From assembly GCA_049510745.1 (NCBI GenBank), contig JBEKYR010000019.1:1-64000 (forward strand): a stretch of 64,000 bases of DNA, in the 5' to 3' direction. Under the pieces are notes generated by a model that was not told the origin of the DNA, ran no database searches, and was given only the letters and a program-made list of their open reading frames with translations. This document shows, piece after piece, positions 16,724-43,327 of the stretch; the first letter of the stretch is position 1, and every line of letters starts with the position of its first letter. The stretch is from Verrucomicrobiota bacterium (GTDB lineage Bacteria > Verrucomicrobiota > Verrucomicrobiia > Limisphaerales > Palsa-1400). The position numbers and the translations under genes were made by a program.

Positions 16724-17370
16724 ACCCCGCCCTCGTTGCCGCTTTTCTAGTTCTATTGTTGACATCCGTCCCCTGCCCCGCCCAGGCGAATTCGGTTTTG
16801 CCTCACGGCGACTTCGAGCAGCCCGACCCGCGGGACCCCGCCAAGCCGGCCGGATGGGATCGCGTCGATGGCCTGGGCGTTCAGTGGATCGAGGCCCCCG
16901 ACGCCGCCCACGGAAAGGCCATCCGCATGGATACCCGCGTCAGTGAGCAGGCCATGCAGGCGCAATGGGTCAAGCGGGGTCTGACCAATTTGTGGAACAT
17001 CCCCAAGCCGGAGAAAAATGCGATTGCCGAAACCTACGGCCTCTCGCTCTATTCCGACCCGATCCCCGTCAAACCCGGCCAGGCCTATCGAATTACGTTT
17101 GATTACCAGGGTCCCGACCGCGGGGCCAAGGTCTGGGTGCGCGGCTGGGGCGTGTTCCAAGGCGAAAAACGGCGGCGCTGGGAAACCACCGTCACCTGCC
17201 ATTGTACGAATGGCACGTGGACGACCTGCACCCAGGTCTTCCATCCCACGCGGGCGCGCCCGGAAGTCACCGAAATGCGGGTGATGCTCTTTGCTTATTA
17301 TCCCGCGGGCGTCTCATGGTTCGACAACGTCCGCATCGCGCCAGTCAACGAGCCGGAGAAACCGAAATGA
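16720..17370 (+). CDS. Exported CBM-like (galactose-binding fold) protein
   Basis: Signal peptide, HGDFE, VKPGQAYRITF, WFDNVRI. Confidence 0.6.
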   Translation: MNPALVAAFLVLLLTSVPCPAQANSVLPHGDFEQPDPRDPAKPAGWDRVDGLGVQWIEAPDAAHGKAIRMDTRVSEQAMQAQWVKRGLTNLWNIPKPEKNAIAETYGLSLYSDPIPVKPGQAYRITFDYQGPDRGAKVWVRGWGVFQGEKRRRWETTVTCHCTNGTWTTCTQVFHPTRARPEVTEMRVMLFAYYPAGVSWFDNVRIAPVNEPEKPK

Positions 17371-18515
17371 CGCCCCCCGCGTTAGCTTGGTTCGCCGGCA
17401 TGATGGATCGTTGTCATGAATTGGCGGAAGCGGCCAAGGCGCAAGGCCGGCCCATCGTGGGCATGATGTGCGAATTTACGCCGCGCGAAATCATTCTGGC
17501 CGCCGGCGCCGTGCCGGTCTGCCTTTGCGGCGGCTCCGCCGCGACCATCCCGCCGGCGGAGCAATTCCTGCCGGCCAATCTCTGTCCGCTGATCAAGTCC
17601 ACCTTCGGTTATCACGTCACCGGAAAAAATCCGTTTCTGAATTGGGCGGATTTGGTCGTGGCCGAGACGGCCTGTGACGGGAAAAAGAAAATGTTCGAGT
17701 TGATGAGCGCCACCAAACCGATGTATGTGCTCGAACTGCCGCAAAAGGCCGATGACGCCGACGCCCTGGAACATTGGACGCAGGAGGTGCGCAAGTTCAA
17801 GGAGCATATCGAGCAACGGTTTCAAACGCGCGTCACGGACGAAAAACTTCGCGACGCCGCCCGGCTGATGAACCGCGAGCGTGGATTGCGCCGGCAACTG
17901 GCCGCCCTGCTGGCGCGCGAGCCGCCGCCGCTGACGGGACGGCAATTGATTGAGTTCAAAAGCATTATTTCCGGCATCGAAGCGGACCTTCAGCAGTATG
18001 AGCGGGCCGTCCAGTGGTTCGGCGACAACCCCGGTTCTCCCCCGCCCGGCGCCGGGAAAATTCGTGTTCTGCTGACGGGTGTGCCGATTGTCCGCGGCGC
18101 GGAGCGGGTTTTGGAACTGATCGAAGACGCCGGCGCGGTCGTGGTCGCCATGGAGAACTGTACCGGCCTCAAACCGATACTTGACGATGTGGAATTGGAC
18201 GGGCCGGAGCCTCTTCGCGCCATTGCCCGGAAATACTACCACCTCCCCTGCTCCGTTATGACGCCGAACACCCGGCGCTTCGACATGCTTCGCTCGCTGG
18301 CGGCGAAATTCCGTCCGCATTGCGTCATCGAGCTGATTTGGCAGGCGTGCCTCACCTACGACATTGAGTCGTTCCACGTCCGCAAACTGGCTGAGGAAGA
18401 ACTCCGGCTGCCTTACCTGAAAATCACGACGGATTATTCGCCGTCGGACTCGGCTCGAATTTCGGCGCGCGTCGAAGCCCTGTTTGAAACGATCCGCGCC
18501 AAAGAATCATTATGA
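17367..18515 (+). CDS. Double-cubane-cluster protein (DCCP / YjiM-like), 2-hydroxyacyl-CoA dehydratase family
   Basis: Motifs as I recall them from YjiM/DCCP: MCEFTPREI, LPANLCPLIKS, AETACDGKKKM, ENCTG, PCS...PN, QACLTY, TDYS.SD. ATGA overlap at 17367. Confidence 0.8.
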   Translation: MTPPALAWFAGMMDRCHELAEAAKAQGRPIVGMMCEFTPREIILAAGAVPVCLCGGSAATIPPAEQFLPANLCPLIKSTFGYHVTGKNPFLNWADLVVAETACDGKKKMFELMSATKPMYVLELPQKADDADALEHWTQEVRKFKEHIEQRFQTRVTDEKLRDAARLMNRERGLRRQLAALLAREPPPLTGRQLIEFKSIISGIEADLQQYERAVQWFGDNPGSPPPGAGKIRVLLTGVPIVRGAERVLELIEDAGAVVVAMENCTGLKPILDDVELDGPEPLRAIARKYYHLPCSVMTPNTRRFDMLRSLAAKFRPHCVIELIWQACLTYDIESFHVRKLAEEELRLPYLKITTDYSPSDSARISARVEALFETIRAKESL

Positions 18516-19318
18516 AATCAGCACCGCAAATTCATCTCTCCGATGTCCAGGCCGTTTATTCCGGGCCGGAAGGCCGGCTCTGGGAACTGCTCATGGGCGA
18601 ACAGATTCACCTCGGCGGTTTCCAGTCCTCGATGGACCTGGCGCAGCGCGCCGGCATCACCGCCGGCTGGGAGGGCGTTGACCTCTGCTGCTGCACCGGC
18701 GCCGGCATGAGGTTTTTGGCGCGCTTCCTCAACGTGGCGCGCATGACCGGCGTGGACGCCACGCCCGCCGTGCTGGCGCTGGGCCGCCGCCGCTGCGCCG
18801 AGGAAGGCCTGGCGGAAAAAATCTCGTTCGTCGAAGGCAACGCCTGCGCGACTGGCCTGCCTTCCGGCCAGTTCGATTTCGTGTGGGGCGAAGACGCCTG
18901 GTGCTACGTCGAGGACAAGGCGAAGTTAATCGCCGAAGCGGCCCGGCTGCTCAAACCGCGCGGCAAAATCGTTTTCACCGACTGGATGGAAGGCCCGGCC
19001 GGATTGACCGGGGCCGAAGCCGGCCGCTATCTCGGTTTCATGAAATTTCCCAACGTGCTCACTCTCGGCGAATACCAGTCGCTGCTCCAGGCCAACGGGT
19101 GCGCGGTGCATCTTGCGCAGGATACCGGCCGCTTTGCCGCCAGCGTGTCGCTTTACCTCGACATGATCGAAAAACAATTGACCTACGACGCGCTGAAGAT
19201 CATCGGCTTCGACCTCGCGCTGGCGCAAAGTCTCGCCGGTGAAATGCGTTTTATTCAATCGCTCGCCGAGGCTGGAAAAATCATCCAGGGCCTTATCGTC
19301 GCGGACGAACCCCGGTAA
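18512..19318 (+). CDS. Class I SAM-dependent methyltransferase
   Basis: GEQIHLG, VDLCCCTGAG (motif I), FDFVWGEDA, RLLKPRGKIVFTD. Confidence 0.85.
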   Translation: MKSAPQIHLSDVQAVYSGPEGRLWELLMGEQIHLGGFQSSMDLAQRAGITAGWEGVDLCCCTGAGMRFLARFLNVARMTGVDATPAVLALGRRRCAEEGLAEKISFVEGNACATGLPSGQFDFVWGEDAWCYVEDKAKLIAEAARLLKPRGKIVFTDWMEGPAGLTGAEAGRYLGFMKFPNVLTLGEYQSLLQANGCAVHLAQDTGRFAASVSLYLDMIEKQLTYDALKIIGFDLALAQSLAGEMRFIQSLAEAGKIIQGLIVADEPR

Positions 19319-19332
19319 AACCAGCGCGGAAA

Positions 19333-20301
19333 ATGGACGTGTTCCTCACCAGCCCGTGGATTCCCGCCGAATGGATCCGGGCGCACGGCTTGCAGCCGCG
19401 GGGCCTCTGGGCGGCGGAAAATCTCCAGGGCGGCGCGTGGCCGCTTTCCGCCGGCGACTGCGCGTTTGCGGAGGCCGTGGTGCGGTTTGCCGAGGCGCGC
19501 ACGGATTCCGCCGTGATTTTTTCGACGGCCTGCGACCAGCTCCGGCGCGGCTTTGACGCCGTCGTTCTCCACGGACAGGGCCGCGCGTTTTTGTTCAACC
19601 TGCCGGCCACGTGGCAGACGGCAGCGGCCGGGCAAATTTTCCGCTCGGAGCTGGAGCGGCTGGGACAATTTCTTTTGTCCATCGGCGGCCGCGCGCCGCC
19701 GGCGGAGGCGTTGCGGCAGGACATGTTGCGTTCCAGCCGGACACGCACGCGTTTGCTCGAATCAGCGCCGGCCAGTTCTCCGCGCGGGTTTGCCGAAGCC
19801 GTGGCGCGATTTCATGGCGACGGCTCTTTTTCGCCGCCGCCGCCGGACGCGCCGACAACTCAAATTCCGCTCGCCCTTGTCGGCGGCCCGTTTCCGGCGC
19901 CGCACTGGAAATTGCTGGACGAATTGGAAGCCGCCGGCGGACGCGTCGCGCTGAACGCCACCGAAACAGGCGAACGCAGCCTGTCGCCGGCGTTTGAATT
20001 TGAGGGCGGCGCAAACCATCCGTTCGACGCGCTGGTCCGCGGCTACTGCGACCACATTATTGACGTGTTCCAGCGGCCGAACACGCGGCTTTATTCCTGG
20101 CTGAAGCCGCGGCTGGCATCCCGCCGCGTGCGCGGCATCGTGCTCTGGCATTTCACCGGCTGCGATCTTTGGCGGGCGGAGGCGCAGACGTTGCGGGAGA
20201 CTTTTGGCCTGCCGGTCTTGCTGCTCGAAGCCGGCGGAGAACCGGGCGCCGCGCCGCGCGAAATCAACCGCCTCCAGGCTTTTGTGGAAACGCTCAAATG
20301 A
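19333..20301 (+). CDS. 2-hydroxyacyl-CoA dehydratase family subunit (HgdB/FldB-like, shortened)
   Basis: WIPAEWIRAHG, GDCAF, STACDQLRR, GCDLW, RLQAFVETL. Confidence 0.7.
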   Translation: MDVFLTSPWIPAEWIRAHGLQPRGLWAAENLQGGAWPLSAGDCAFAEAVVRFAEARTDSAVIFSTACDQLRRGFDAVVLHGQGRAFLFNLPATWQTAAAGQIFRSELERLGQFLLSIGGRAPPAEALRQDMLRSSRTRTRLLESAPASSPRGFAEAVARFHGDGSFSPPPPDAPTTQIPLALVGGPFPAPHWKLLDELEAAGGRVALNATETGERSLSPAFEFEGGANHPFDALVRGYCDHIIDVFQRPNTRLYSWLKPRLASRRVRGIVLWHFTGCDLWRAEAQTLRETFGLPVLLLEAGGEPGAAPREINRLQAFVETLK

Positions 20302-21683
20302 ACGCTCCGCCGCGCAAATTGAACCTGGACCAGTGGGACGACCGCTACGAGCAACTTCGGCGGGACGGCCTGCGCGAACCCGGCTACGGCGGCCCGTTGC
20401 GCCGTCATGTCGCCCGCGAGAAGGATTTCCGGCTGCAACATTTGCAGTTCGACAACTCGCCCGCCGCGCTGCGGCTCTGGAATTTTCTGCTGACGGAAAA
20501 CGAGCGGCTGCACCAGGCCCGCGCCAACGGCCACAAACTTGTCGGCACGATGAAAGACCTCGGCACCGTGCCGGTCATGGCGTACGCGCTGCCGGGCATG
20601 CGGGCGTTTTATCCGGACGGCGCGTGGTGGACGCCCTGCCTGATGGAATGCAGCGACATGCTGTTGCAACAGGCGGAAAAAATGGGCATTGACGCCTCGT
20701 TTTGTCCGGTGCGCGCGATGCTGCCGGCCTTGGTGAATGGCGGGCATTTCCCGCGGCCGGATTTGCTGGTTTGCAGCGCCGGCGCAATCTGCGATGATTT
20801 TTCCGCCATCGCGCAACGTCTGGAACATCTGGGCCATTCCATTCTTTGGTGGGAAATCCCGCGCCGCCGCCCCCCTGCTTTGGGCGAAACGGCCTGCGCG
20901 CTGCCGGGCGATCTCGCCGCGCCGAAAATTCAAGTGGACTGCGTGCGGACGGAATTGCAGCGCGTGGGCAAGGCGCTGGGTGAACTGGCCGGAAAAACCC
21001 TGGACAACGACTGTTTGGCAGCTGCGATTCGCGCGGCCAACCAAGTGCGCCGGCGGCTGGACTCGTTGCGCCGGACCGTTTATTCCGCCGCCGCCGCGCC
21101 GCTGCCCGCCCTGGAAATGCTCGTCGCGGAAATGCTCGCGCTTCATTTCTGCTCCGACCGCGAGGAAACCATCGCCGTGCTCGACGCCTTGCTGGCCGAG
21201 GTTGAAGGGCGCGCGCGGCGGAACCAGTTTGTGGTCAGCGCCAAGGCGGTACGGATTTTCTGGGTGAATCCGGTGGCGGATTTGCGCGCCATGAACTTGC
21301 TGGAAGAAATTGGCGGACGCATTTGCGGTTCGGATTACATGTTCACCCACGCCTTGGATTTGATTCCCGAGAATCTGCCGCCGCTGGAAGCGCTGGCCCG
21401 CACCGCGCTGGCCGATTTGATGGTCGGCCCGACAGCCGAGCGCGCGGCGCGCATCGTCCGCGAATGTCAGGCCAACCGCGCCGAGGCCGTGGTCGTGTCG
21501 CGCATTCCCGGCGCGAGCCACTGCGCGCGCGAGGGAAAAATCATCCTCGAAATTGTGCGGCGAAAGATCGGGATTCCCGCCCTCGAACTTGAAATTCCGC
21601 CGGTGTGCGATGCCCTGCGGCCGAGCCTCGCCTCGCGGTTGCAGGCCCTGGTTGAAACCGCCCAGGCCAGGAGGACAAAATGA
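20298..21683 (+). CDS. 2-hydroxyacyl-CoA dehydratase family subunit
   Basis: SFCPVRA, GAICDD, ASHC, RLQALVE. ATGA-coupled start at 20298. Confidence 0.7.
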   Translation: MNAPPRKLNLDQWDDRYEQLRRDGLREPGYGGPLRRHVAREKDFRLQHLQFDNSPAALRLWNFLLTENERLHQARANGHKLVGTMKDLGTVPVMAYALPGMRAFYPDGAWWTPCLMECSDMLLQQAEKMGIDASFCPVRAMLPALVNGGHFPRPDLLVCSAGAICDDFSAIAQRLEHLGHSILWWEIPRRRPPALGETACALPGDLAAPKIQVDCVRTELQRVGKALGELAGKTLDNDCLAAAIRAANQVRRRLDSLRRTVYSAAAAPLPALEMLVAEMLALHFCSDREETIAVLDALLAEVEGRARRNQFVVSAKAVRIFWVNPVADLRAMNLLEEIGGRICGSDYMFTHALDLIPENLPPLEALARTALADLMVGPTAERAARIVRECQANRAEAVVVSRIPGASHCAREGKIILEIVRRKIGIPALELEIPPVCDALRPSLASRLQALVETAQARRTK

Positions 21684-22471
21684 TTTGCGCCGGCATCGAC
21701 GCGGGTTCGCGCTCCATCAAGGCGCTGCTGTTCGACACCGACCGGGCGCAAGTTCTTGCCTCCGGCCTGGCCGACCAGGGCGTGGAACAAGAACGCCTGG
21801 CAGCGGAACTTTTCGCGGCGCTTTTGCGGGAGGCGGGACTGGAGCGGTCGCGCGTTTCCGGCGTGGTGGCCACCGGCTACGGACGCCATGCCATCCGTTT
21901 CGCCGACACCACCATCACCGAGATCACCTGCCACGCGCGCGGCGTCCACCGGCTGGCGCCGGACGCGCGCACGATTGTCGAGATCGGCGGACAGGACAGC
22001 AAGGTCATCTGCCTCGAAGACGGCGGGCGCGTGCGCGATTTTGCGATGAACGACCGCTGCGCGGCGGGCACGGGACGCTTCCTGGAGATGGTCGCGGCGC
22101 GGCTGGACATGAATTGGGAAAAGCTGTCGGAACTGGCGCGCCAGAGCAAAAAGCCCGCGCTCATCAGCAACATGTGCGTGGTCTTCGCCGAGACGGAAAT
22201 CATCGGCCTGCTGGCGGACGGCCAGCCGTTGGCGGACGTGGTGGCCGGCGTGCAAAACGCCATTGCCACCCGCGTGGGGGCGCTGGCCGGGCGGTTCGTT
22301 TCGCCGCCGGTTTATTTCACCGGCGGCGTCGCGTTGCTGGCCGGCATGGCCCGCGCGCTGGAGGAGGTTTTGGCTTGTCCGGTCCGGGTCGCGCCGCGGC
22401 CGCAATTCACCGGCGCGCTCGGCGCCGCGCTGTCCGCCCGCGCGGCCGAGCCGCCCGGCGGCGGCCTATGA
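21680..22471 (+). CDS. ATP-dependent [4Fe-4S] activase (HgdC/BadF/BcrA/D, YjiL-like)
   Basis: GIDAGSRSIK, ATGYGR, EITCHARG, IGGQDSK, MNDRCAAGTGRFLE, CVVFAETE, GALGAA. Confidence 0.92.
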   Translation: MICAGIDAGSRSIKALLFDTDRAQVLASGLADQGVEQERLAAELFAALLREAGLERSRVSGVVATGYGRHAIRFADTTITEITCHARGVHRLAPDARTIVEIGGQDSKVICLEDGGRVRDFAMNDRCAAGTGRFLEMVAARLDMNWEKLSELARQSKKPALISNMCVVFAETEIIGLLADGQPLADVVAGVQNAIATRVGALAGRFVSPPVYFTGGVALLAGMARALEEVLACPVRVAPRPQFTGALGAALSARAAEPPGGGL

Positions 22472-28333: not shown

Positions 28334-28351
28334 TCGCAGCCCGAGAAAACT

Positions 28352-30822: not shown

Positions 30823-31707
30823 TCACTTTTGACACTCCTCATTAGACGTGGTTTGCGGCAGGGCAAAGCACGGTTCAATGGCGCCGCAGGTGGCGCATTC
30901 CAGGCAGCGGATGCAGCCGGAAACGTTGACGGCCTGATCCACTTTCACACCCATCGGGCAGCGGCTGCGGCAGAGGTTGCATTCGACGCATTGCTGCGGA
31001 TTGAACCGGAGATGAAACAGGCTCAACCGGTTGAAGAGCGCGAGCAACCCGCCGAGCGGACAAAACACGCGGCACCACGGCCGGTGAATGAAAAGCGCGG
31101 CCGCAAGAAAGGAGAGCAAAATGCCGCTCTTCAACCCGCTCATCAGCCAACCGTTGCCGGCAAGCAGGCTTTGCACGGAGTAAGGCACGCCGGCTTCCAG
31201 CGCGCCGGCCGGACAAAGCCGGCAAATGGAAATGACCTGCCTTTCAAATGGAATGCCGTTGAAACCCAGAATCAGCGGCAGAAGAATCACCAATCCTACC
31301 AGAACGAAGTAACGGCCGTAACCGGTCCAGGACGGCAGGATGATTTTCCGGGTGGTGATTTTGCCGAGCAAGTCCTGGAGAAAACCGAACGGACAAGCCC
31401 AGCCGCAAACGATGGAACCGCCGGCCGCGCCGACGAGCACGAGCACGCCGATCAATAAATACGGCACTTCCCCCGCCACTGGCAGCAGCGCCGCGTAGTT
31501 GGCCATCACACCCACCGGGCAGGCGAAGGCCGAGAGCGGGCACGAGTAACAGTGGAACACGCAGCCGGGAATGCCGTGCAGCCACCGGCCCAGCGGCGCG
31601 AGCCACAGGCCGAGAAAACCGGTTTGCACCCAGGGACGCCAGCGCGAGAGTTTTCGTCCGAGCGCCGCCGGCTTCCATTCAGGGCAATTGGGAACGGGAC
31701 ATTCCAT
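30823..31707 (-). CDS. Membrane 4Fe-4S ferredoxin (NapH/MauN-like)
   Basis: HCYSCP...ACP, CGWACPFG, CRLCPAG, WCRVFCPLG, CVECNLCRSRCP, CIRCLEC, plus TM helices. Confidence 0.9.
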   Translation of the reverse strand: MECPVPNCPEWKPAALGRKLSRWRPWVQTGFLGLWLAPLGRWLHGIPGCVFHCYSCPLSAFACPVGVMANYAALLPVAGEVPYLLIGVLVLVGAAGGSIVCGWACPFGFLQDLLGKITTRKIILPSWTGYGRYFVLVGLVILLPLILGFNGIPFERQVISICRLCPAGALEAGVPYSVQSLLAGNGWLMSGLKSGILLSFLAAALFIHRPWCRVFCPLGGLLALFNRLSLFHLRFNPQQCVECNLCRSRCPMGVKVDQAVNVSGCIRCLECATCGAIEPCFALPQTTSNEECQK

Positions 31708-31717
31708 GGGAACAGGT

Positions 31718-31736
31718 CGGCCACGCCACGTGGCCG
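31718..31736 (-). promoter_or_regulatory. Putative SECIS element 1
   Basis: On the minus strand: TGA (31752-31750), then 14 nt, then GGCCAC-GTGGC-GTGGCC. Confidence 0.7.
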
Positions 31737-31740
31737 GAAT

Positions 31741-32115
31741 TCATCTTATTCAGGTGGGACAGGGCGTTTTTGCGCCGAGGTCCACGCGGATTTTCCACGC
31801 CGGCGGCTGGGTATGGGCCTGTTGTTTGGCCCAGCGGTCAAGCGCCTCGCCGGGATTGGCCACGGCATCGAGTTTCGGCGGCGGCGGCGGCGCGACTTGG
31901 TCCGGGTATTGCAAACCGCCGGAGGAGAAGGCTTTGACCAACTGCGTTTCCCACGCCGTGTTTCCGTCCGTGGTGTCCACGTTGGTCAGATGCCGCGCGC
32001 CGCTAAACAGCAGCGCCGCGCCGGTCAGCGCGACAACCAAGCCGGACCAGAAATCGTGGTCTTCCCGCGCGCGCGACGCGCGATTGACCGGTGGCTGGGG
32101 GACTCGCTTGAACAT
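31741..32115 (-). CDS. Putative small membrane selenoprotein with C-terminal CxxU (…KTPCPT-U-IR)
   Basis: ATG at 32115, 18 nt after the tRNA-Sec CCA end. One TM helix. CPT-TGA followed by a SECIS-like hairpin; next stop is TGA at 31743-31741. Confidence 0.7.
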
Positions 32116-32133: not shown

Positions 32134-32230
32134 TGGCGGAGGTGGATGGGAATCGAACCCACCTGGGACTTTGTTGAGTCCCACGCTGGTTTTGAAGACC
32201 AGGAGCGCCACCAGGTCGCCCCACACCTCC
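32134..32230 (-). tRNA. selC: tRNA-Sec (anticodon UCA)
   Basis: GGAGGTG...CTGGT-CTTCAAA-ACCAG, long variable arm TGGGACT/AGTCCCA, GTGGG-TTCGATT-CCCAT, CACCTCC-GCCA. Confidence 0.95.
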
Positions 32231-32390
32231 CCGGCGGACCGCCGCGCCGCTGGCCAATGGCAGGCGTGATTGATTTCCGGCGGGCCGCATCACACAGGTA
32301 TATTGACAGATTGGAGCGGATAACTCAATCCGAATTTAGTCGCCAGCCGCGCCATAAATGGCAGACTGTTTGCACGTCAGGAAAGAATTT

Positions 32391-33227
32391 ATGGACATTC
32401 GAAAAGCCGTCATCACCGCCGCCGGTCCGGGCCAGCGGACGCTGCCGCTGCAAACGCTGGTTGACCGCGACGGCAAAACCAAGACCGCGCTCGGCATCAT
32501 CGTGGAGGAGGCGCTCAATTGCGGCGCGGAGGAAACCTGCGTGGTGGTCCATCCGGGCGACGCCGAGGCCTACCGCGCCGCCGCCGGGCCGCACGGCAAG
32601 CGATTGCAGTTCGTGGAGCAGGAGAAGGCGCTGGGCTACGGCCACGCCGTCTGGTGCGCCCGCGCCTTCACCGGATCGGAGCCGTTTCTGCTCCTGGTCG
32701 GCGATCATCTTTATCTGAGCCGGGAGAAACGCAGTTGCGCGCGGCAATTGGTCGAGGTCGCCGCGGCCGAGGCCTGCGCCGTTTCCGCCGTGCAGGCCAC
32801 GCACGAAAGCAAACTGCCCTATTACGGCGTGGCGGGCGGGCGGCTGGCGGAGAACCGCAAAGGCCTTTACCTCATTTCCGAGGTGCTGGAGAAACCGACC
32901 CCGACCGTCGCCGAACAACGCCTCATCGTTCCCGGATTGCGCGCGGGCCATTATCTTTGTTTTTTCGGGATGCACGTTCTGACGCCGGCGGTGATGGATT
33001 TGCTGGGGGCGGAAATGGCCGCCGGCCAGGCGGCCAGCCTGAGTCAAACACTCGCCAAGCTGGCCAGCCGCGAGCGCTATCTGGCCTGCGAATTACAGGG
33101 ACGCCGGTTTGACATCGGTTTGAAATACGGCCTGCTGACCGCGCAACTGGCGCTGGCCCTGAGCAGCCCGGCCCGCTCCGAAGTGCTCGCCGGACTCGTC
33201 GAACTCCTCGCCCAGGAACCCCATTGA
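32391..33227 (+). CDS. Sugar-phosphate nucleotidyltransferase (GalU-like)
   Basis: [40 protein letters not shown]. Confidence 0.8.
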
Positions 33228-33235
33228 TCACGCGC

Positions 33236-36200
33236 ATGGCCAGCCCGCTCCTCGACATCATCACCTCGGCGGACGCGAGAATTCGCAACCAGCCGCTCGA
33301 CGCCTTTTGCGCCCGCGCCCCGGCAGATGAACTGCTGGCGGCCTGCGCGGAACTGGAGGGCTTCCGCCGCCGCAGCGACAATCTTTACGAGCGCGTCCGC
33401 GCGTTGTTCTTCCTTTACGCGATTCACCGTTTTCATCTGCCGGGGAAACTGCCCGCGGGCGCGGACGGCATGATTCCCTTCAAAGGATTCGAACATCTGC
33501 TGCACCGCCGGTTTGAAGAGGCGCTCGACCAGTTTCTTTCCGCGCAAAAAAGCGGCGGCCCCAGCGACGCCCTTTGCAGCGCGCTGGCCGCCGTGTATCA
33601 ACGCATCGGCTTTCAGACGCTGGCCGACCAGGTGCGGCGCAGCGTCCGTTCGGTGCGCGGCAACCAATGGATGTTCCGCATGGGCCATCCGGAGGATCAT
33701 CCGTTGCGCGTGCGCCCGGAACTGCTGCAACGCGGCGCGGACGGCGCCTTCCCCGTGCTGCGCGAACGCACCCCGGTGCGGATGGATTTGAGCCATTCGG
33801 GCTGGAGCGACATTTTCTTTCTCGGCATGGATTTTCCCGAAGGCGCCCGCGTGCTCAACGTCTCCATTGACCTGGGCGTTCACGGGCGCGACCAGGCGGC
33901 GCAGCCGCCGGTGGAGGCCTGCTTGCGGGTGATTGACGAACCGGTTTTGCGCCTGACCAGCGTGGACCTCGGCGCCACGGCGGAGATCAACAATCTGGCC
34001 GAGGTTTTTGATTTCGCCCGCGACTACCTCGGATTGCTCAAAGCGGCCGTCATCGCTGCCGGCATTGTGCCGCCGGGCATTGAAGGTTCGGGACTCAATC
34101 TGGCCGACTTGCTCGCGCGGGTCGCCGGGGCCGGGCGCGGCCTGGAATTGGTCAGCCACGTCAACGATATTCCGAAAGGCTCGCGCCTGGCGGTCTCGAC
34201 CAACCTGCTCGCCTCGCTGATTTCCGTCTGCATGAGGGCCACCGGCCAGGCCAAGTCGCTGACTGGCGCGCTGGCCGAGGAGGAACGGCGCCTGGTGCTG
34301 GCGCGCGCGTTGCTGGGCGAATGGCTCGGCGGCTCGGGCGGCGGCTGGCAGGATTCCGGCGGCGTGTGGCCGGGCATGAAACTCATTTGTGGCGTGACCG
34401 CGACGGAAGGCGATCCCGAATTTGGCATCAGCCGGGGCCGGCTCATGCCGGCGCACCGCATTCTGGATCGCCACGACGTTTCGTCCGAGACGCGCGAGCG
34501 TTTGCAGCAAAGCCTCGTGCTCGTCCACGGCGGCATGGCGCAAAACGTCGGGCCGATCCTCGAAATGGTGACGGAAAAGTATCTGCTCCGTTCCGCCGCC
34601 GAATGGGCCGGACGGCAGCAGGCCATCGGGTTGCTCGATGAAATCGTGTCGGCGCTGCGCGCCGGAGATGTGCGCGGGGTGGGCGCCCTGACCACGCGCA
34701 ATTTTTGCGAGCCGATCCAAACCATCATTCCGTGGGCCAGCAACGCCTTCACCGAATCGGTCATCGCGTCCGTGCGGGACGAGTTTGGCGCGGATTTCTG
34801 GGGGTTCTGGATGCTCGGCGGCATGTCCGGCGGCGGGATGGGTTTCATCTTTGAGCCGCAACGCAAGGCGCGGGCGCAGCAGCGGTTGCAGGAAATCATG
34901 TCGCAAACCAAGCGCGAACTGCAACACGCGCTGCCCTTTGCCATGGAGCCGGTGGTCTATGATTTCGCCATCAACGAGCGCGGCACCTGGGCGGACCTGC
35001 TGCGCGGCGACGAGGCGTTGCTGCCGCGCGGCTACTACGCGCTGCATGTTCCGCGCTGGCTGCGGGCCGATCCGCAGGCGCTGACCAGGGCGCAGCGCGC
35101 CGAACTGGACAAGTTCGGCGCCGCCTGCCGCACGCGAACGGAATTGTCCGGCATGATGCAGACGCTCTTCGACCGCCTGCTGCCCCGGCTCAAATCCGAG
35201 GGCGGCTCCCAGCAAAGCCTGGCGGAATTGCTCGAACAAAACGGCTTCGACCGCGTGCAGCATGAGCAGATTCGCGACGATTTGAAAGACGGCCGCATCG
35301 GCTTGGCCCAAAACCGCCTGCCCGCCAGCGCCGACATCAAGGACGTGCAGGATGCCGATGTGTTCAATGCCACCGGGCCGTTGGCGGAGGAATTGCGCCA
35401 GGCCGGCCTGGCCGCCCTCGCCCGCGGCGAACTGGCGGTGGTCACGCTGGCCGCCGGCGCGGGCAGCCGCTGGACGGAAGGCGCTGGTGTGGTCAAGGCG
35501 CTGCATCCGTTCTGCAAATTCAACGGCCTGCACCGGACGTTCATCGAAACGCACCTGGCCAAGAGCCGCCGTATCGGCCAACTGGCCGGCCAGACGCTGC
35601 CGCACTTCTTCACCACCAGCTACCTGACCCACGCGGCCACCGAGGAATTCCTGCGCCGGAAGAAAAATCATCATTATCCCGGACCGCTGCTCCTGTCGCC
35701 CGGCAGGTCCATCGGGCTGCGGATGATCCCGATGGTGCGCGACCTGCGCTTTCTCTGGGAGGAGATGCCGCAGCAACGGCTCGACGAGCAGCAGCAAAAA
35801 GTGCGCGACAGCCTGCGGGCCGCGCTCCTCAACTGGGCCCGTTCGGCGGGCGAGGGCGGCGATTACACCGACAATCTCCCGGCCCAATGCCTGCACCCGG
35901 TGGGACACTGGTTCGAGGTGCCGAACCTGCTGCGCAACGGCGTGCTGGCGCGCTTGCTCGCCGAACGTCCGCAGTTGCGGCACCTGATGTTGCACAACAT
36001 CGACACGCTCGGGGCGGACGCGGACCCGGCGCTCTTCGGTTTGCATCTGGCGCAGGAGGGCTGCCTGACGTTCGAGGTCATCACGCGCCGGCTGGAGGAC
36101 CGCGGCGGCGGCCTGGCCCGCGTTAATGGCCAGGTGCGGCTGGTGGAAGGACTGGCCATGCCGCGCGAGGAGGATGAGTTCCAACTCCGCTTCTACAATT

Positions 36201-36556
36201 CAAACACCTGCTGGATCGACATCGACAAACTGCTGGCGGTTTTCGGCTTGAGCCGGGCCGACCTTTCCAAGGCGGAACACGTCGCCGCCGCCGTGCGCGC
36301 GCTGGCCGCGCGCATGCCGACCTACATCACGATCAAGGATGTCAAGAAGCGCTGGGGCCACGGCCAGGAAGACGTGTTCCCGGTCAGCCAGTTTGAGAAA
36401 CTGTGGGTGAACATGACCGCGTTGCCGGAAGTGAAAACGCGCTTTGTCGTGGTGCCGCGCCTGCGGGGACAACAGCTCAAGGACCAGGCGCAACTGGACG
36501 GCTGGCTGCGCGATGGCTCGGCCGATTTCGTCAACCAGCTTTGTGCCTGGCCGTGA
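33236..36556 (+). CDS. GHMP-kinase-like / UDP-sugar pyrophosphorylase fusion
   Basis: [32 protein letters not shown], then [32 protein letters not shown]. Confidence 0.75.
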
Positions 36557-36606: not shown

Positions 36607-38706
36607 ATGGCAAAGCAAAAGACTGGTGGCTTATCATGGCGCTGGCTGGGAACCGCCGGGGTGGCTTGCTGGACGTGTGCGCTGTTGGTTGTGCTTTGCT
36701 CGGAAAACAGGCTTCGCGCGGCTGATTCTCTTCTTTCCGGTTCTCCGTCCTCAAACGCCGTCATGGCTGCGCTGGAGTATCAGGAAACAGACTCTGGCGT
36801 CATCAACTGGGGCGTTTCCCTGACGCCGCGGACCAGTCCTTTCAAAAAAGAGCCGGCGGCGGCTTCGGGCAAAATCATTCGCGGCGTTTTGAATTTCGGC
36901 GCCGATTCCAGCAACTCCATTCCCTTTCTCTGGCAGTGCCAGGCGGGAAAACTTTACCTCGACCTCAATCGCAACCAGGATTTGACCGACGATCCCTCCG
37001 GCCTGTTCTTGGCGCGCGCCGCGAAGCCGGATAATTACCAGACCTTTGCGAACGTCCACCTGCTTTTCAACACCGCTTCCGGCAGGTGCCGGGTGCTGGC
37101 GGACCTCTCCTTCTGGGACTACAGTGCGCCGCCAATTTGCAGCTTCGCGGTGCGCTCGTTCTGGCAAGGCAAACTGAGGTTGCAAGGGCGGGATTGGCAG
37201 GTGGGCATCGTCCCGAATATCCTGGACCGATCGGGCTTGTTCGAGAACAGCCGGTTGCTGCTGCGTCCCTGGGATAAACGAAGCCAGCCGTTCAACGCGG
37301 ATGATGGGTTGCTCGCCACTGTTCCCTTCTCGCGGAAACTTTTTGTGGATGGCCACGCCTATCAACTGGAGTGCGTCGCCCGTTCGCAAGACGGCGAAGC
37401 CAGGCCCGCGCTCCAATTCACGGAACAATCCGTCGCGCTGGGCGAAGTGAAAATCACCGGCCAATTCATCCGCCGCCTTGTTCTGCAGGGCGAGGCGTTC
37501 CTGGTGGTGCTCGATCAGCCGGCAGGCGTCGTGAAAATCCCGGCCGGCAGCTATCACCAGCCCGAGATCCTGCTCGAACAAGACGGCGTCGCGGCCTTCT
37601 CCCGCAATTCCGGCCAGTGGCAAATTGGCCGGCAGATTTCCGTGCGCGACAAGGCACAGGTGGCATTGAACGCGGGCGGGCCGTTGACCAATTCCGTCGC
37701 CACCGGCCGCCACGGTCAGGATTTGCGTCTGGATTATTGCCTGCTCGGCGTGGGCGGCGAAACTTACCAACTGGCCAGGCAAGATCGCTCCAAGCCGCCG
37801 GAGTTCGCGGTTTACAAGGGCGGAAAAAAAATCGCGTCCGGCAGATTTGAGTTTGGCTGAGGCAACACCTGCTCGCACTCATGGCGAGTGCCTCTCACCG
37901 CCGGCGGCAAACTGTCCCTTGTGGCTTCGTCCGACCTCGGAGCGCTCGGTGCGAAGGAAGGTCCGGCGGTCATCTACGACTGGGTGTTGCCCAGCCTGGC
38001 GCCGCTGTTGCTGCCGTGGCTGGTCATTCTGGGATTGCTCACCTTGAAACGGAATCGTTGCGCGGCCGCGTGGTGGATTTGGCTGCCGCTCGGATATGTG
38101 ATCGCGTTTACGTTGGCGCCGCTGGACATCATGCCCGCGGGAACAGATTTTTTCCTGGATGTCATCGCGGCGCTGGCGGCGGGGCTGGGCGCGGTCTGGC
38201 TCCTGACAGATTATCTCCGGCGGCCACATCGGTTCGTTACGTTTCTGTGCCTCCTGCTCGCCTTGGCCGGTTTCAGCGCGCTGGCCTTTGTGTCCGCACA
38301 AAGCTGGAGTTTCACGTCGGAAACATTTGTGGCCGGCATCGTTCTGGCCGTGGGCGTGGTGGTCAGTGCGGTGGCGTTGAGTCTGGCCGGGCTGATCTGC
38401 CGCGGCCGTTATCGTCGCGTCGGCCTTTATGGGTGGCTGCTCCTCTTGCTGGCCGTCATCTGGCTGGTGATCACCGGGCCTTTCTTTTTGTTCGCGCTCA
38501 TCGCTTCAGGCGGAAGAGTGTCTTGGGGCGGATTCTTTGTTCCCGTTTTTGCGTTGGTGACGCTCCATTTCGCCACCCTGCTGCCGTTCCTGATCCTGTC
38601 CTCGGCCAGCCCGTTTTACCGCCAACGGCTCAAGGCCCTGCTGCACGTCACACCGGAAGCGCCGCCCGTGCTGGCGCCTTTGCCGGATGCCGGTTTAAAA
38701 ACTTGA
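36607..38706 (+). CDS. Putative exported/membrane selenoprotein (FEFG-U-GNTC) with about 7 C-terminal TM helices; TGA 37858-37860 read as Sec
   Basis: The 36589..37860 and 37888..38706 ORFs are in the same frame, separated only by this TGA and 9 sense codons. A SECIS-like hairpin follows. Confidence 0.8.
37875..37891 (+). promoter_or_regulatory. Putative SECIS element 2
   Basis: TGA, then 14 nt, then GCACTC-ATGGC-GAGTGC. Confidence 0.8.
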
Positions 38707-38737
38707 ACTCGATGAACACCAAGCCAACCATGATGTT

Positions 38738-40009
38738 ATGAAACTTTCCAAACAACTGTTCCTGGCCGGAATGGTTCTCGCCGGCGCCGCCTTCGCGCAA
38801 TCCGAGCAATGGCTGGAATACCACACCGGCGCCGAGGGCCGCGCCTACCAGCAGGTGGAACTGACCACCAATCCGCCCCCCGGCGTCGCTCTGCCGAAGT
38901 TCAATGCGCCGCCCTATTTCGCCCGCTGGCTCACGCCGATGGACCCCGCCGGCGGGCGCTGGCTCTGCCTGGACCGCACGCGCAAGTCCGGACCCTATGA
39001 CCGGCTGTTCTTTGACAACAACGGCAATGGCCGGCTGGACGACAAATCGCCCCTCCCGGCGCGGCTGGATTCCTCCTTCGCCTATTTTCCGCCAGCCCGC
39101 GTTGTGTTCAAGGGCGAGGACGGGCCGATCACCTATCATCTTGTCTTCCGCTTCTATCAATACGAAAAGAATCCCCCGCAATTGCTGGCCTCCTCCGCCG
39201 GCTGGTATGAAGGTCTGGTCAATTTCGACGGCGCGAAAAAGCGCATTCAACTCATCGACGGCAACGTCAACGGCACGTTCAACGACGTCGCCCCGGACCC
39301 GTATGACTGCGACCGCGTCCAAGTCGAGGGCGACAAGACCAGCGAACGGTTTTTGGGCCGGATGCTGGAAGTGGACGGGAAGTTTTACCGGATCGAAGCC
39401 GCCCGCGACGGCGCGTTCGTCAAAGTGCAGAAGGCGGAGAACGTCACCCTCGGCCAGGTGCGTGTGCCGGAAAACATTTCCGAATTCGCCGCCTTCGGCC
39501 CGAACGGCCATTTCGTGCGCACACCGGCGGACGGCCAATTCACCTTGCCGGCGGGCCATTACCGGATTTTCCACTGGACGATCAGCCGCAAGGATGAAAA
39601 GGGCGCGCCGTGGACGCTCTCAGGCTATAATTTTCCCAAAACCGCCACCTTCGAGGTCGCCGCCGATAAGACCGCCTTGGTGCAAATCGGTGAGCCGGTG
39701 CAAGCCGTGCTCAAGGCGGCGGAGGGCGCCAAGCGTCAAGTCGATTTCAGCCTCAGCTTCGTGGGCCGGCAAAAGGAATCCATCGAGATGCTGTGCGACG
39801 GCCAGCGCCCGCGCGGGCCGAAATTGACGTTGGCCAACAGCGACGGGACGCTGTGTTATACGAACACTTTCGAGTTTGGATGAGGCGGCGTTTGCTCGCT
39901 CTCATGGCGGGAGCCTAAAAATGTGCGGCGTCCGTTGGTTGGCGGCGTCAAAATTTTCAGCCCGTTCCAGGTGCTGACGAGTCCGTTGACGCTCGCGCCA
40001 AAAAAATAA
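38738..40009 (+). CDS. Putative exported selenoprotein (FEFG-U-GGVC), paralogue of the preceding gene; TGA 39881-39883 read as Sec
   Basis: Signal peptide. Read-through adds UGGVCSLSWREPK...LAPKK up to TAA at 40007-40009, 12 nt before the next ATG. Confidence 0.78.
39898..39914 (+). promoter_or_regulatory. Putative SECIS element 3
   Basis: TGA, then 14 nt, then GCTCTC-ATGGC-GGGAGC. Confidence 0.8.
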
Positions 40010-40021
40010 ACTGATCATCGC

Positions 40022-43000
40022 ATGAAAACGACACGGCAATTCCTTCTGGTCTCTGCCGCTTGGGCGCTCCTGGGCGTCAGCACGCACGCCCAGACGCTGG
40101 AGCGGGTGGGGGTTCAAAAAGTGGCGGACACAGCCACGAACGCTGGCGCGCAAAAACTTACCGGAACGGTCACCGACGCCGCCGGCCATCCCCTGGCCGG
40201 CGCGACGGTGGAGTATTGGCGTTACGAGGGAAATCGGCTCCTGGCGAGTCCCTTGGAATTGATCGGGCAAATCACTACGGAAACGAACGGCGCTTTTGAA
40301 TTCCAACTCTCGCGGGCGGCCGGATTCCTCCTGGCACGAAAGCCGGGCCTGGCCCCGGCCTGGATACAATTGGGCCAGCCGTATCCTTCCGTCGGTGACA
40401 GGGGAGAGAATTTGATGCTGACTCCGCCCGCGGCGCTGGCGGGCGTGGTGGTGGACGAAGCGGACAAACCTGTTCCAAACGCCCGGGTTTCCGTGGCCAT
40501 TGCCATCTCCGAAATGTCGCAGGAGGAGGGAGCGCGAAGTCTTAATTATTTCACTGGCAAACCCGCGCGCGATTGTTTTGCCGCCCGCACGGATGCCGCC
40601 GGCCGTTTCCGCATCGAGAATTTTCCGACCAATGGCACGGCCGCCCTGACCGTTCAGGCGCCGGGAAAAGCTCTGCGCCAATCACCGCAGGAAGCCGGCG
40701 GCATGGACTCGCTGCCTTGGCGCGCGGGCCAGCAAGACATCAAATTGGTCGTGGAACCGGCCGGCAGCGTCGAAGGAAGGATTATCGTCGAGGGCAGCAA
40801 TCAACCGCCGCCCGTCGCGCGGCTGACGTTGCAGCCCGATGGGCCGGGCTTTGCCGCGCTTGACGAGCGCGAGCCGGCGCCATCCGGCGCGGACGGCGCG
40901 TTCCAACTCAGCGACGTGCCCGCCGGTTCTTATCACATTCATGCCGTCTTTGGAACCAATGCCGTTCCGGAATGGGTCGCAGACATGGTTCCAGTTTCGG
41001 TTGAGTCCGGCCAACCCACGCGCGGCGTGCAGGTGACTGCGGTGCGCGGCGGCGTGCTGGAAGTGGCCGTGCTGGGTCAAAATGATCGCAAACCACTGGC
41101 GCAAATTATGGTCAATGCCGTCAAGGAGAATTTTCAATCCGCCGCCAGTTCGGACAGCAACGGCATCGCTCTCCTGCGGCTGCCGCCTGGAGATTATCAG
41201 GTGGCGGCGTTTCGTGAATCCATGCCCGCGAGCCAGACTCCCGCCAGCGTGGAAGCCGGCAAAACCAACCGCGTGGAGATTGAAATCGCCCCGCCGAGAA
41301 AAATCACCGGCATCGTCCGCCAACCGGACGGCCAGCTGGCGGCGGGGTTGCGGGTGAGATTGGTGGGTGGGTTTGGCCCCGGGGCGGGCGAAGTCAAGAC
41401 CGATCCCGGCGGCCAGTTTAGTTTGGAATGGAATCAGCGCCGATTCGGACAGAACGACACGACTGCCTGCGTTCTCGTGCGGGACGCGGAACACAATCTG
41501 GCCGTGGCGCAGGACATTGACGAAGACACCGGCCCGCTCGACCTGAAACTCGCGCCGGGGCTGACGCTGGCGGGCCGGGCGGAATCCGACGGCAAACCCC
41601 TCACGAACGCGGCCGCCGCGCTGATTTTCTTTACCGGCAGAAGGGGCATGCACCTCGCCGGATTGAGCCGCGAAACCAACACGCCGGGCCGGTTTGAAAT
41701 TCCCGCCATTCCGCCCGGACGAAAATACGGCGTCCTGGTCTCCGCTCCGGGTTACGGACAGAAGGCGAATTACGATGTGAATGCCGCCGCCGAAGGTGGC
41801 CGCATGGAACTGGATCCCTTTGAGCTTAAACCTGCCAACCTCAAACTCGCCGGCCAGTTGCTCGACGCGGACGACAAGCCGGTCGCAGGCGCCTATGTGA
41901 ATCTTTACGGAGAGGGCCAGCCCAGTGCAAACGCGCGCACGGACCGCGAGGGTCGCTTCCGCTTCGAGCATGTCTGCGAAGGCCCGGCTCGAATCTCGGC
42001 CAACAAGCAGAATTCATTCGGCAATATGTCGGCGGAAGGCGGCGACACCAACGTCGTTCTGCGGCTCGGTCAAACCCTCAACAACTCCCCGGGTTCCACC
42101 GCCCATAAACTCAAAGGCACTGTGACCGACCCCGACGGCAAACCCGCCGCCGGCGCGCAGTTGGCGGTGTTTCCGTCCTTTGATGTGAGTTGGACAAAGA
42201 CCGCGACCAACGGCGCCTTCAGCCTCACTTGGTCGCTCCAGCCCTGGCAAATGCAGCAGTCAGGCGGCGCCGCGCTGCTGGTGGCCCGCGACCCGGCCCG
42301 CAATCTGGCCGCCACCGAAGAGTTGCCGGAGGAAACCACCAACCTCGACGTGAAATTGAAACCGGCCCTGACCGTCACCGGACTGGTTGAAAAAGATGAC
42401 GACTCTCCACTCGCGGGCGCGCAGGTCGGTGTCTGGCTCAAGGCGGGCAACATGTACGACCAGTTGAACCAACAAATGGCTGGGACCGACGCCCAAGGCC
42501 GCTACGAAATCAAGTGCCTGCCGCCGGATGCGTCATACATTGTTTTCGCCACCGCCAGCGGCCACGGTCGAAGCCAGCAGCAAGTTCAGAACGATTCCGA
42601 AACAAACCGCGTGGAACTATCGCCCTTCGTCCTCAAGCTGGCCGACCGTTTTTTGGCCGGCCAGGTGCTCAACGAAAATGACAAGCCCGTTTCCGGCGCG
42701 AACGTGTCGTTGAATGGCGAAGACCAGCCCCAAGCCAGCATGACCACCGACAGCAAGGGCCGCTTTCACTTCCAGGTTTGCGAAGGGCAGGTCCGCCTCT
42801 TCGCCAATTCCCCCCAAGGCGGTGAATTCGCGCAAGCCACCGCCGAAGCGGGCGACACCAACGTCGTGATGACTTTGAGTTCCCAGGCGGGGAATATCCG
42901 CGAGACACCGCACCGCGCCTCGCTCAAAGGCAGTCCGCTGCCGGACTTGGCGGCCGTCAATCTCGCCGGCGACGCCGCCCCCGCCGGCCAGCCGGTGTTG

Positions 43001-43327
43001 TTATGCCTGTTCGACGCGGGCCAGCGTTCGTCGCGACACGTCGTCCACCAGTTGGATGGACAGGCCCCCGCGCTGCGGCAGCAAGGCGTCACGGTGCTGG
43101 GCGTTCAAGCCGCGGTCACCAGCGATGACATACTCAACGAATGGAAAAGCGCCAGTCCGGTTTCATTCCCGCTCGGACGCGTGGCGGAGAAATCCGAAAA
43201 ATCAAAATGGGCCTTGGCCGTTCCGGCCTTGCCGTGGCTGATCCTGGCCGACGCCCATCATCGCATCATCGCCGAAGGCTTCCCGCTCGACGACCTGGAC
43301 GCGCAGATCAAAACCCTGGCCAAGTGA
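40022..43327 (+). CDS. Exported protein with repeated carboxypeptidase-regulatory-like domains and a C-terminal thioredoxin-like domain lacking CxxC
   Basis: Signal peptide and repeated G.V.D..GKP.AGA.V...TD..GRF units. C-terminal GSPLPDL...GQPVLLCLFDAGQRSSR...ALPWLILAD..II. Confidence 0.75.
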   Translation: MKTTRQFLLVSAAWALLGVSTHAQTLERVGVQKVADTATNAGAQKLTGTVTDAAGHPLAGATVEYWRYEGNRLLASPLELIGQITTETNGAFEFQLSRAAGFLLARKPGLAPAWIQLGQPYPSVGDRGENLMLTPPAALAGVVVDEADKPVPNARVSVAIAISEMSQEEGARSLNYFTGKPARDCFAARTDAAGRFRIENFPTNGTAALTVQAPGKALRQSPQEAGGMDSLPWRAGQQDIKLVVEPAGSVEGRIIVEGSNQPPPVARLTLQPDGPGFAALDEREPAPSGADGAFQLSDVPAGSYHIHAVFGTNAVPEWVADMVPVSVESGQPTRGVQVTAVRGGVLEVAVLGQNDRKPLAQIMVNAVKENFQSAASSDSNGIALLRLPPGDYQVAAFRESMPASQTPASVEAGKTNRVEIEIAPPRKITGIVRQPDGQLAAGLRVRLVGGFGPGAGEVKTDPGGQFSLEWNQRRFGQNDTTACVLVRDAEHNLAVAQDIDEDTGPLDLKLAPGLTLAGRAESDGKPLTNAAAALIFFTGRRGMHLAGLSRETNTPGRFEIPAIPPGRKYGVLVSAPGYGQKANYDVNAAAEGGRMELDPFELKPANLKLAGQLLDADDKPVAGAYVNLYGEGQPSANARTDREGRFRFEHVCEGPARISANKQNSFGNMSAEGGDTNVVLRLGQTLNNSPGSTAHKLKGTVTDPDGKPAAGAQLAVFPSFDVSWTKTATNGAFSLTWSLQPWQMQQSGGAALLVARDPARNLAATEELPEETTNLDVKLKPALTVTGLVEKDDDSPLAGAQVGVWLKAGNMYDQLNQQMAGTDAQGRYEIKCLPPDASYIVFATASGHGRSQQQVQNDSETNRVELSPFVLKLADRFLAGQVLNENDKPVSGANVSLNGEDQPQASMTTDSKGRFHFQVCEGQVRLFANSPQGGEFAQATAEAGDTNVVMTLSSQAGNIRETPHRASLKGSPLPDLAAVNLAGDAAPAGQPVLLCLFDAGQRSSRHVVHQLDGQAPALRQQGVTVLGVQAAVTSDDILNEWKSASPVSFPLGRVAEKSEKSKWALAVPALPWLILADAHHRIIAEGFPLDDLDAQIKTLAK

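Follow-up and report, generated by a model that had tools for sequence, protein, structure and literature searches.

Two tandem genes with in-frame TGA codons as predicted members of an apparently uncatalogued family of exported selenoproteins in Verrucomicrobiota

The window analysed here is a 64,000 nt stretch of DNA (contig JBEKYR010000019.1 of assembly GCA_049510745.1, positions 1 to 64,000, forward strand) from a Verrucomicrobiota bacterium of the Limisphaerales. It contains two adjacent genes for exported proteins, referred to as gene A and gene B, whose open reading frames (ORFs) both appear to end in FEFG followed by TGA. The question raised by this locus is whether these two codons are stops or whether, as a first-pass annotation of the window proposed, they encode selenocysteine (Sec, U). 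Comparative sequence analysis indicates that both genes are almost certainly selenoprotein genes and that both TGAs are Sec codons.

The coordinates proposed for the two genes hold, and the similarity between them continues past the TGA as claimed. The products are paralogous (24% identity over 327 residues, E 2e-8) in an alignment that crosses the TGA and takes in the upstream motif that had been pointed out as shared, LYLDLNRN in A and LFFDNNGN in B. Reading through the TGA of gene A joins a 272-aa membrane ORF in frame, terminating at TGA 38704-38706, and in gene B it adds 41 codons up to a TAA at 40007-40009, leaving a gap of 12 nt before the next ATG at 40022. The expected read-through lengths of 699 aa (Sec418) and 423 aa (Sec382) were thereby confirmed. 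Codon periodicity persists 3′ of each TGA, with a third-position GC content (GC3) of 0.75 in A and 0.68 in B. Apparent signal peptides stand at both N-termini (by eye) and seven hydrophobic helices follow the Sec domain of A, while B has none, so the two are predicted to be exported U-x3-C selenoproteins, one membrane-anchored and one soluble, as had been suggested. They are the only family members in this genome. A promoter and terminator scan remained at chance level.

The metagenome motif pattern admitted TGA, TGC or TGT at the site and required Cys, Trp, Arg and Pro, which makes it circular for those four residues and not for the Sec codon. TGA was present at 204/204 motif sites, of which 140/140 were distinct sites from at least 135 metagenome stretches and 64/64 lay in genome loci. 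All of the best 120 close relatives end at [FY]G, the Gly before Sec. The size of the family, measured with a profile of both paralog types at E up to 0.001, is 4,391 clusters at 50% identity, and 146 of the best 150 of these 4,391 representatives end at the same Gly. Whole-genome profile searches, in which the motif was not required, gave one TGA in 24/25 matches among relatives, 14/16 in a phylum sample and 59/60 in an order sample; in the four matches without TGA the site is not covered or the motif is lost. TAA or TAG was never seen at the Sec site among the homologues examined. Protein conservation carries on after the UGA (alignments A1, A3 and A4) and the folded domain spans the site.

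It is very improbable that the TGA acts as a genuine stop, arose by a pseudogenising mutation, or encodes Trp or Gly under a changed code. Database entries do annotate the family proteins as ending at FEFG, the downstream part of gene A has a possible GTG start of its own, and UGA-to-Trp reassignment is reported for some Verrucomicrobiota in the available text of PMC13462651. A genome-wide reassignment to Trp or Gly is nevertheless ruled out, because long frames of the genome end in TGA more often than in any other stop (1,590/2,818) and tRNA-Sec is the sole UCA tRNA among its 76. A plain stop is also at odds with a site that never turns to TAA or TAG, with a covarying hairpin, with a strict link to the Sec genes and with Cys at the site in the lone database relative that is read through (P0323).

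The hairpin is a candidate selenocysteine insertion sequence (SECIS). It consists of a six-pair stem, in which positions 15-20 after the TGA pair with 26-31, and a 5-nt loop, (A/G)UGG(C/A), from +21. Each of the six pairs is formed in 203 or 204 of the 204 sites. Across 102 rows chosen for diversity, 611/612 cells are paired (99.8%) with 58 double-sided changes; 0/500 shuffles match this pairing and slid controls reach 20-67%. RNAalifold, unprompted, predicts the same helix. The stem dictates which residues occur together: His-CAC is found with Val-GTG (37/37), Leu-CTC with Glu-GAG (53/53), and Tyr-TAC with GTA or GTG. A G at +15, a third codon position, is kept in 203/204 sites under nine amino acids. 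In distant members Trp is replaced by Gly and the loop is changed, with the stem retained. As read from the alignments, the amino-acid covariation after the motif is dictated by the RNA hairpin, and the Trp and Arg found there are partly dictated by the SECIS.

A loose genome-wide scan for SECIS elements was too noisy to be of use; the strict-geometry scan was informative. The full six-pair hairpin and loop at the right spacing follow 6/159,270 genomic TGA triplets (both strands), three of them inside the island of Sec-related genes that surrounds A and B and three without coding context. The same scan gave 0-3 matches for each of six control triplets, and the four true TGA stops of the island form 1-2 of the six pairs.

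The consensus bacterial SECIS (bSECIS), as given in the available part of PMC13188914, has a spacing of 16-37 nt, a stem of 4-16 bp, a loop of 3-9 nt, a G within the first two loop positions and an energy of at most -7.5 kcal/mol. The spacing (loop from +21), stem (6 bp) and loop (5 nt) of the family hairpin fall inside these limits. Certain features count against it. Single-sequence folding of both 3′ regions is no better than that of shuffles (z -0.4 to -1.4), and the case for the SECIS rests on covariation for this reason. The energies are -8.0 kcal/mol for A and -7.3 kcal/mol for B against the published -7.5 limit. The loop G is second only if G21-C25 pairs, as in 88/204 sites, and otherwise third, which differs from the bSECIS model. 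As in known selenoproteins decoded by SelB and SECIS, there is an in-frame UGA, an intragenic hairpin just after it and a full set of selA, selB, selC and selD.

The four sel genes had been placed close by, and all are found within 14.1 kb upstream, with selA, selB and selD above the NCBIfam cut-offs. The SelD protein has a Cys-rich N-terminal extension, and its C-terminal AhpD/CMD domain carries a CxxC. Among 61 relatives, selA is present in 8/11 genomes that carry the family (carriers); tRNA-Sec occurs in all of the remaining three, selD in two of them and selB in one. The incomplete carriers G019 and G029 (78% and 64% complete) have tRNA-Sec. The sample of 301 phylum genomes holds nine carriers of the Sec domain, 9/9 among the 17 with selA, and a tenth match that covers the N-terminal part only, in a selA-negative genome. 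In the 301 order genomes, 26/27 carriers are among the 113 with selA, and the exception (G036) has selB, selC and selD. The association has a nominal p of ~1e-11, with kin not independent. No TGA form was found in a genome without Sec genes among the relatives, phylum and order samples examined. The co-occurrence that the first-pass annotation had proposed to test is present, and none of the results that it had named as contrary turned up, the site never being TAA or TAG and conservation after the TGA being strong.

The carriers also share a particular selA. When the order sample is ranked by selA score, the top 27 genes belong to 26 carriers and one non-carrier. A FastTree phylogeny of 60 SelA proteins (30 from carriers and 30 from non-carriers, hand-picked from the lists; midpoint-rooted, no outgroup) groups 29 carriers with a single non-carrier (branch support 95), and a separate branch (support 99) collects 24 non-carriers. 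The carrier label changes three times on this tree as compared with 20 times in shuffles, and members of the same host family occur on both sides. Because the carriers share one selA branch while host families are split across both, the tree suggests an island co-inherited with one selA lineage rather than descent with the host. The closest named relatives are Verrucomicrobiota of the Limisphaerales type, and one distant relative is labelled Planctomycetes.

Cys forms of the family are very rare, and the homologue search returned TGA aligned at U with conserved sequence downstream. A search with region 370-423 gave three candidates and no match, a domain profile run on longer proteins gave 29 matches with 0 Cys, and none was found among the selA-negative genomes (284 phylum, 188 order). 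Of 412 database proteins, some of them fragments and a few of them unrelated peptides, a single one, P0323, has G-C-G-S-T-C at the site and continues into the membrane domain. This 716-aa database entry turned up by chance in a cluster listing and is identical to a truncated cluster-mate at 422/427 positions. Its DNA was not found in 401 class genomes, and the codon could be TGY or the U could have been stored as C. P0323 confirms the fused frame of the gene A type and a Cys-like residue at the site. In the available text of PMC12013277, which describes deep-Sep, all known selenoproteins have Cys homologues and a filter drops candidates without them. The near-absence of Cys forms may explain why methods based on Cys/Sec pairs missed this family. 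A precedent for near-exclusive use of Sec is SaoL, Sec in 44/45 according to the part of bioRxiv 2022.07.06.499078 consulted.

The Cys at +4 is kept where the search did not require it (26/26 rows, 6/6 and 10/11 in three separate sets), and three separate groups of degenerate paralogs have lost U and C together. Frameshifted or broken copies also occur (L029, L038, P0249 and L201), possibly from assembly errors.

Structure prediction was run with U replaced by C, as the first-pass annotation had advised, and gave a confident all-beta model in which the Sec domain is an Ig-like sandwich. The predicted local distance difference test (pLDDT) score of mature gene B product is 97.0 and its predicted TM score (pTM) 0.90; the Sec domain alone was modelled at a pLDDT of 90.8. 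Residues 318-423 of B form a seven-stranded sandwich of the FN3/macroglobulin type (VIA Z 8-9.2, many tied matches). In the model Sec would sit at the tip of a short Gly-rich hairpin, a Gly-U-Gly-Gly turn, with Cys four residues on. Neither the whole chain nor the Sec domain had a clear Foldseek match, and sequence searches of the PDB returned nothing below E 0.07. A thioredoxin-fold UxxC or CxxU selenoprotein was rejected on the all-beta models and the U-x3-C spacing. Short members of about 200-250 aa consist of the last two domains only, and others add LamG, F5/8 or membrane domains. P0147 and P0233 are fused to an N-terminal region which presumably resembles the BlaR1/M56 peptidase; P0233 has lost the Sec motif.

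The model bears on what the UGA could be for. Were it chiefly a selenium-dependent switch or sink, the domain and anchor would be completed with selenium and a truncated form made without it. The entire membrane domain of gene A is indeed encoded 3′ of the UGA, the genes are neighbours of the Sec machinery, and the common selenoprotein families tested in this genome yielded no Sec form. A switch is quite improbable all the same, as a stop at the UGA would remove the last three strands of the sandwich, and the Cys at +4 lies outside the SECIS stem and is lost jointly with U in degenerate copies. A structural role is likewise improbable: a Se-S bond, or a Se-Se bond between subunits, would, in anoxic habitats, lock or cross-link adhesins or S-layer-like proteins at the surface. 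The Sec domain has adhesin, S-layer and macroglobulin domains as fold neighbours, and the LamG and F5/8 fusions and tandem paralogs are in keeping with such a role. Cys is usually tolerated in bonds of this kind, yet Cys forms are nearly absent here, and the existence of an island devoted to Sec and equipped with a redox module in the membrane (below) would be left unexplained.

Neither protein fits a Pfam or NCBIfam family (NCBIfam release 20.0), selenoprotein models included, in agreement with the earlier remark that the family was not recognisable. Members of the alignments give weak matches only, to GEVED (11/101), MG2 (3/101) and OS_HP2 (3/129). The DUF1573/OS_HP2 selenoproteins (NF041425) resemble the family as exported, small beta-sandwich domains with Sec beside Gly and a nearby Cys, and the DUF1573 fold is one which we take to be Ig-like. 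They were rejected as a match: the best score is 17 bits against a cut-off of 100, the profile alignment has a probability of 43.7% without aligning the motifs, and their motif is U-G-C rather than U-x3-C. The OS_HP2 model matches other genes of the genome, in Cys form, and not the locus of A and B. Hypothetical protein DG (NF049953, GUxG) has no match at the locus at E <= 1.

Certain known systems are similar in part. The N-terminal domain of DsbD (nDsbD) is an Ig-fold periplasmic redox domain with the pair Cys103-Cys109 (PMC3137068, in the part available). It shares with the family an Ig-type sandwich outside the cytoplasm with a redox-capable pair, but uses Cys instead of Sec at another spacing, and the membrane domain attached in the family is without a Cys pair. 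It is an analogue only, having no sequence match in the PDB searches; its absence from the top 50 VIA rows, which hold generic sandwiches only, does not exclude homology. A membrane domain of the DsbD/ScsB type was rejected for want of a conserved Cys pair in a 24-row alignment, which likewise has no conserved His. The MG domains of alpha-2-macroglobulin and fibronectin type III domains are alike in fold only (Z 8-9.2, with 8.1-9.1 for the MG domains; root-mean-square deviation 2.2-3.2 A, 75-98 residues); MG domains carry no Sec, and the family proteins of 400-700 aa are without macroglobulin architecture.

The motif is not in Table 1 (119 families) of a 2026 review (PMC13188914), nor are Verrucomicrobia or Planctomycetes named in its text, as far as that text is available. 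The family's G-U-G-x-x-C motif and fold thus set it apart from the listed selenoproteins decoded by SelB and SECIS. BSepDB gathers known families only, according to the accessible portion of PMC13326102. The literature searched does not describe the family, although unvalidated candidates of a groundwater deep-Sep study could include it. The selenoprotein family is judged real, large and apparently uncatalogued, new in motif and setting and known in its decoding mechanism.

The features of the locus are collected in Table 1. A second new selenoprotein candidate, termed CPT-U, lies in the same island. Its C-terminus, C-P-T-U-[ILM]-[KR]-stop, is shared by the window and all 17 other copies printed, and its hairpin lies beyond the stop and hence without protein constraint. 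Loop variants in relatives are ACGGC, AUGGA and GUGGC. No informative Pfam or NCBIfam match was found for this gene.

Table 1. Features of the selenoprotein island in the window
Feature	Position	Strand	Details
Gene A	36607..38706	+	ATG 36607; 699-aa exported selenoprotein (predicted): signal peptide, beta-rich ectodomain ending in Sec domain, seven membrane helices
Gene A Sec codon (Sec418)	TGA 37858-37860, after FEFG	+	Partner Cys422 at 37870-37872
Gene A Sec-bearing Ig-like domain	37666..37983	+	Profile A4 match, E 3.4e-29
Gene A SECIS hairpin	37875..37891	+	6 bp, AUGGC loop, -8.0 kcal/mol
Gene A seven-helix membrane domain	37984..38607	+	Alignment of membrane part, hydrophobic-helix scan
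Gene B	38738..40009	+	ATG 38738; 423-aa soluble exported selenoprotein (predicted), all-beta
Gene B Sec codon (Sec382)	TGA 39881-39883	+	Partner Cys386 at 39893-39895
Gene B Sec-bearing FN3/macroglobulin-type domain	39689..40006	+	Residues 318-423
Gene B SECIS hairpin	39898..39914	+	6 bp, AUGGC loop, -7.3 kcal/mol
Partner gene, exported CarboxypepD_reg repeat protein	40022..43327	+	Ends in thioredoxin-like domain (by eye, no HMM match)
CPT-U gene, second new selenoprotein candidate	31741..32115	-	124 aa, one N-terminal hydrophobic segment, ends C-P-T-U-I-R
CPT-U Sec codon	31750-31752	-	Strict SECIS scan
CPT-U SECIS	31719..31735	-	Same geometry, beyond the gene's stop codon
Membrane polyferredoxin (Fer4_5, NapH/MauN-like)	30823..31707	-	Pfam/NCBIfam
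selC, tRNA-Sec (UCA)	32134..32230	-	tRNA search
selA	22544-23953	+	Above NCBIfam cut-off
selB	23950-25899	+	Above NCBIfam cut-off
selD	25896-27518	+	Above NCBIfam cut-off; Cys-form SelD fused to AhpD/CMD domain
Double-cubane reductase (NF040772 above cut-off), methyltransferase, two further ORFs (one HGD-D by Pfam), ATP-dependent activator	17202..22471	+	Directly upstream of selA

The neighbours recur to differing degrees. Among 26 genome loci, the repeat protein is present in 26, the gene A type in 22, and CPT-U and the polyferredoxin in 17 each; selD lies within 10 kb in 13, selB in 8 and selA in 6. The 78 mostly short metagenome loci contain the polyferredoxin in 10, the double-cubane gene in 10, the methyltransferase in 8 and selA in 7. 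The order in relatives is A, B, repeat protein, CPT-U and ferredoxin, facing selD-selB-selA, and because it differs in the window the A-B block is regarded as rearranged here. The family is modular and paralog-rich, and shares its island with CPT-U, the polyferredoxin, the repeat protein and often a double-cubane cluster.

The thioredoxin-like end of the repeat protein (42899-43327, +) has QR(S/P)S at the CxxC position in 26/26 rows printed, and a second copy of this domain was seen elsewhere in the genome (G000 C75:3117-3545). Three family paralogs stand in tandem within 8 kb in loci L057, L111 and L127, beside selA/selB or methyltransferase/double-cubane genes. A nucleotidyltransferase and a large UDPGP-domain gene (32358-36556, +) lie between selC and gene A. 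The interval between selD and the ferredoxin (27687-30646, +) holds what we take to be an AbrB-like/PIN-like gene pair, together with a GHKL-type ATPase (weak Pfam match). No internal TGA was found in the molybdopterin, AhpC-TSA and FlpD matches of the genome, the only families tested; the first of these include a formate-dehydrogenase-like protein whose match is without internal TGA (G000 C33:31929-33188). Genes A, B and CPT-U may make up much of the selenoproteome of this genome.

The function tentatively favoured, at somewhat less than an even chance and by analogy with the Ig-fold domain nDsbD, is an extracytoplasmic Sec/Cys redox relay fed via the CPT-U peptide and the polyferredoxin. The decoding that it builds on is almost certain from the comparisons: SelB reads a SECIS of six pairs beginning 15 nt past the UGA, and tRNA-Sec inserts Sec. 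Translation then completes the FN3/macroglobulin-type sandwich and, in A, the seven-helix anchor, and the exported proteins display Sec on the Gly-U-Gly-Gly turn. In the proposed relay Sec would act there as the attacking nucleophile of a thiol/selenol relay, reducing or exchanging disulfides, or other electrophiles, on envelope substrates. The Cys at +4 would resolve the Sec intermediate, and Sec would be re-reduced by electrons from the polyferredoxin via the CPT-U peptide. Positioning Sec on its substrates may fall to the extra beta domains, to the fused lectin-like domains and to the repeat protein. Support comes from the retention of the Cys at +4 where it was not required, from the joint loss of U and C in degenerate paralogs, and from the recurrence of both CPT-U and the polyferredoxin in 17/26 genome loci.

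Several observations weigh against such a relay. The seven-helix domain has no conserved Cys pair and is for this reason not a conduit of the DsbD type, and the thioredoxin-like neighbour is without CxxC. In the DSSP register the Cys lies opposite the residue three positions ahead of Sec and not opposite Sec, so that an internal Se-S bond could form only if the Gly-rich tip bent back. Member L119 keeps U and has Leu in place of the Cys. The fold matches are generic sandwiches that indicate no function, and many paralogs per genome together with lectin-type fusions would also fit binding or surface roles.

The double-cubane genes raise another use of the same Sec residues. With Sec recoding unchanged, the U-x3-C pair may be a soft-metal or metalloid ligand (Hg, Cu, As or Se species) on exported capture proteins, which would pass the bound species to the membrane-anchored paralog and to the double-cubane/methyltransferase enzymes of the cytoplasm, as proposed for SAO. 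This is possible but rather unlikely. The double-cubane reductase, activator and methyltransferase lie directly upstream of selA in the window, and the reductase and methyltransferase genes stand beside family genes in 10/78 and 8/78 metagenome loci. The modelled exposure of Sec and the near-absence of Cys forms suit a strict selenolate chemistry. The SAO locus, as described by Haft and Gwadz in the part of bioRxiv 2022.07.06.499078 available, has the same double-cubane link and resembles the island as a conserved multi-selenoprotein locus truncated in databases, with a nearly Sec-only member (SaoL) and adjacent double-cubane genes. The link between double-cubane proteins and selenium is general in that source, however (955/970 with SelD). 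No ABC transporter, MerB-like or efflux gene is found among the recurring neighbour clusters, and in the alignment no His, Met or additional Cys is conserved close to the site. SAO differs from the island in its phyla and in those transporter and MerB-like genes, and membership was rejected, with no Sao model among the NCBIfam matches for the family or island genes scanned.

Taken with the redox relay, the island could be a mobile, self-contained selenium island of anaerobic Verrucomicrobiota and Planctomycetota, with its own selA lineage and a SECIS dialect used mainly for exported Ig-fold selenoproteins and the CPT-U peptide. With the polyferredoxin, these would conduct electrons to the cell surface by a route that is Sec-obligate and independent of DsbD, and that may be linked to double-cubane chemistry acting on selenium or organometal compounds. 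This wider picture is speculative and on the unlikely side.

With the recoding, the approximately 119 listed prokaryotic selenoprotein families would gain a large one (4,391 clusters) and another that is small, and thousands of database entries would be mis-truncated. Sec would be found on an extracellular domain of the FN3/macroglobulin type, unlike the thioredoxin and metal-cofactor settings in which it usually occurs, and the family offers a clear-cut natural example of amino-acid covariation imposed by an RNA hairpin. The family occurs in about half of the Sec-using Verrucomicrobiota of the phylum sample (9/17) and marks one of two selA lineages. This bears on what maintains the Sec trait where a genome lacks a Sec formate dehydrogenase.

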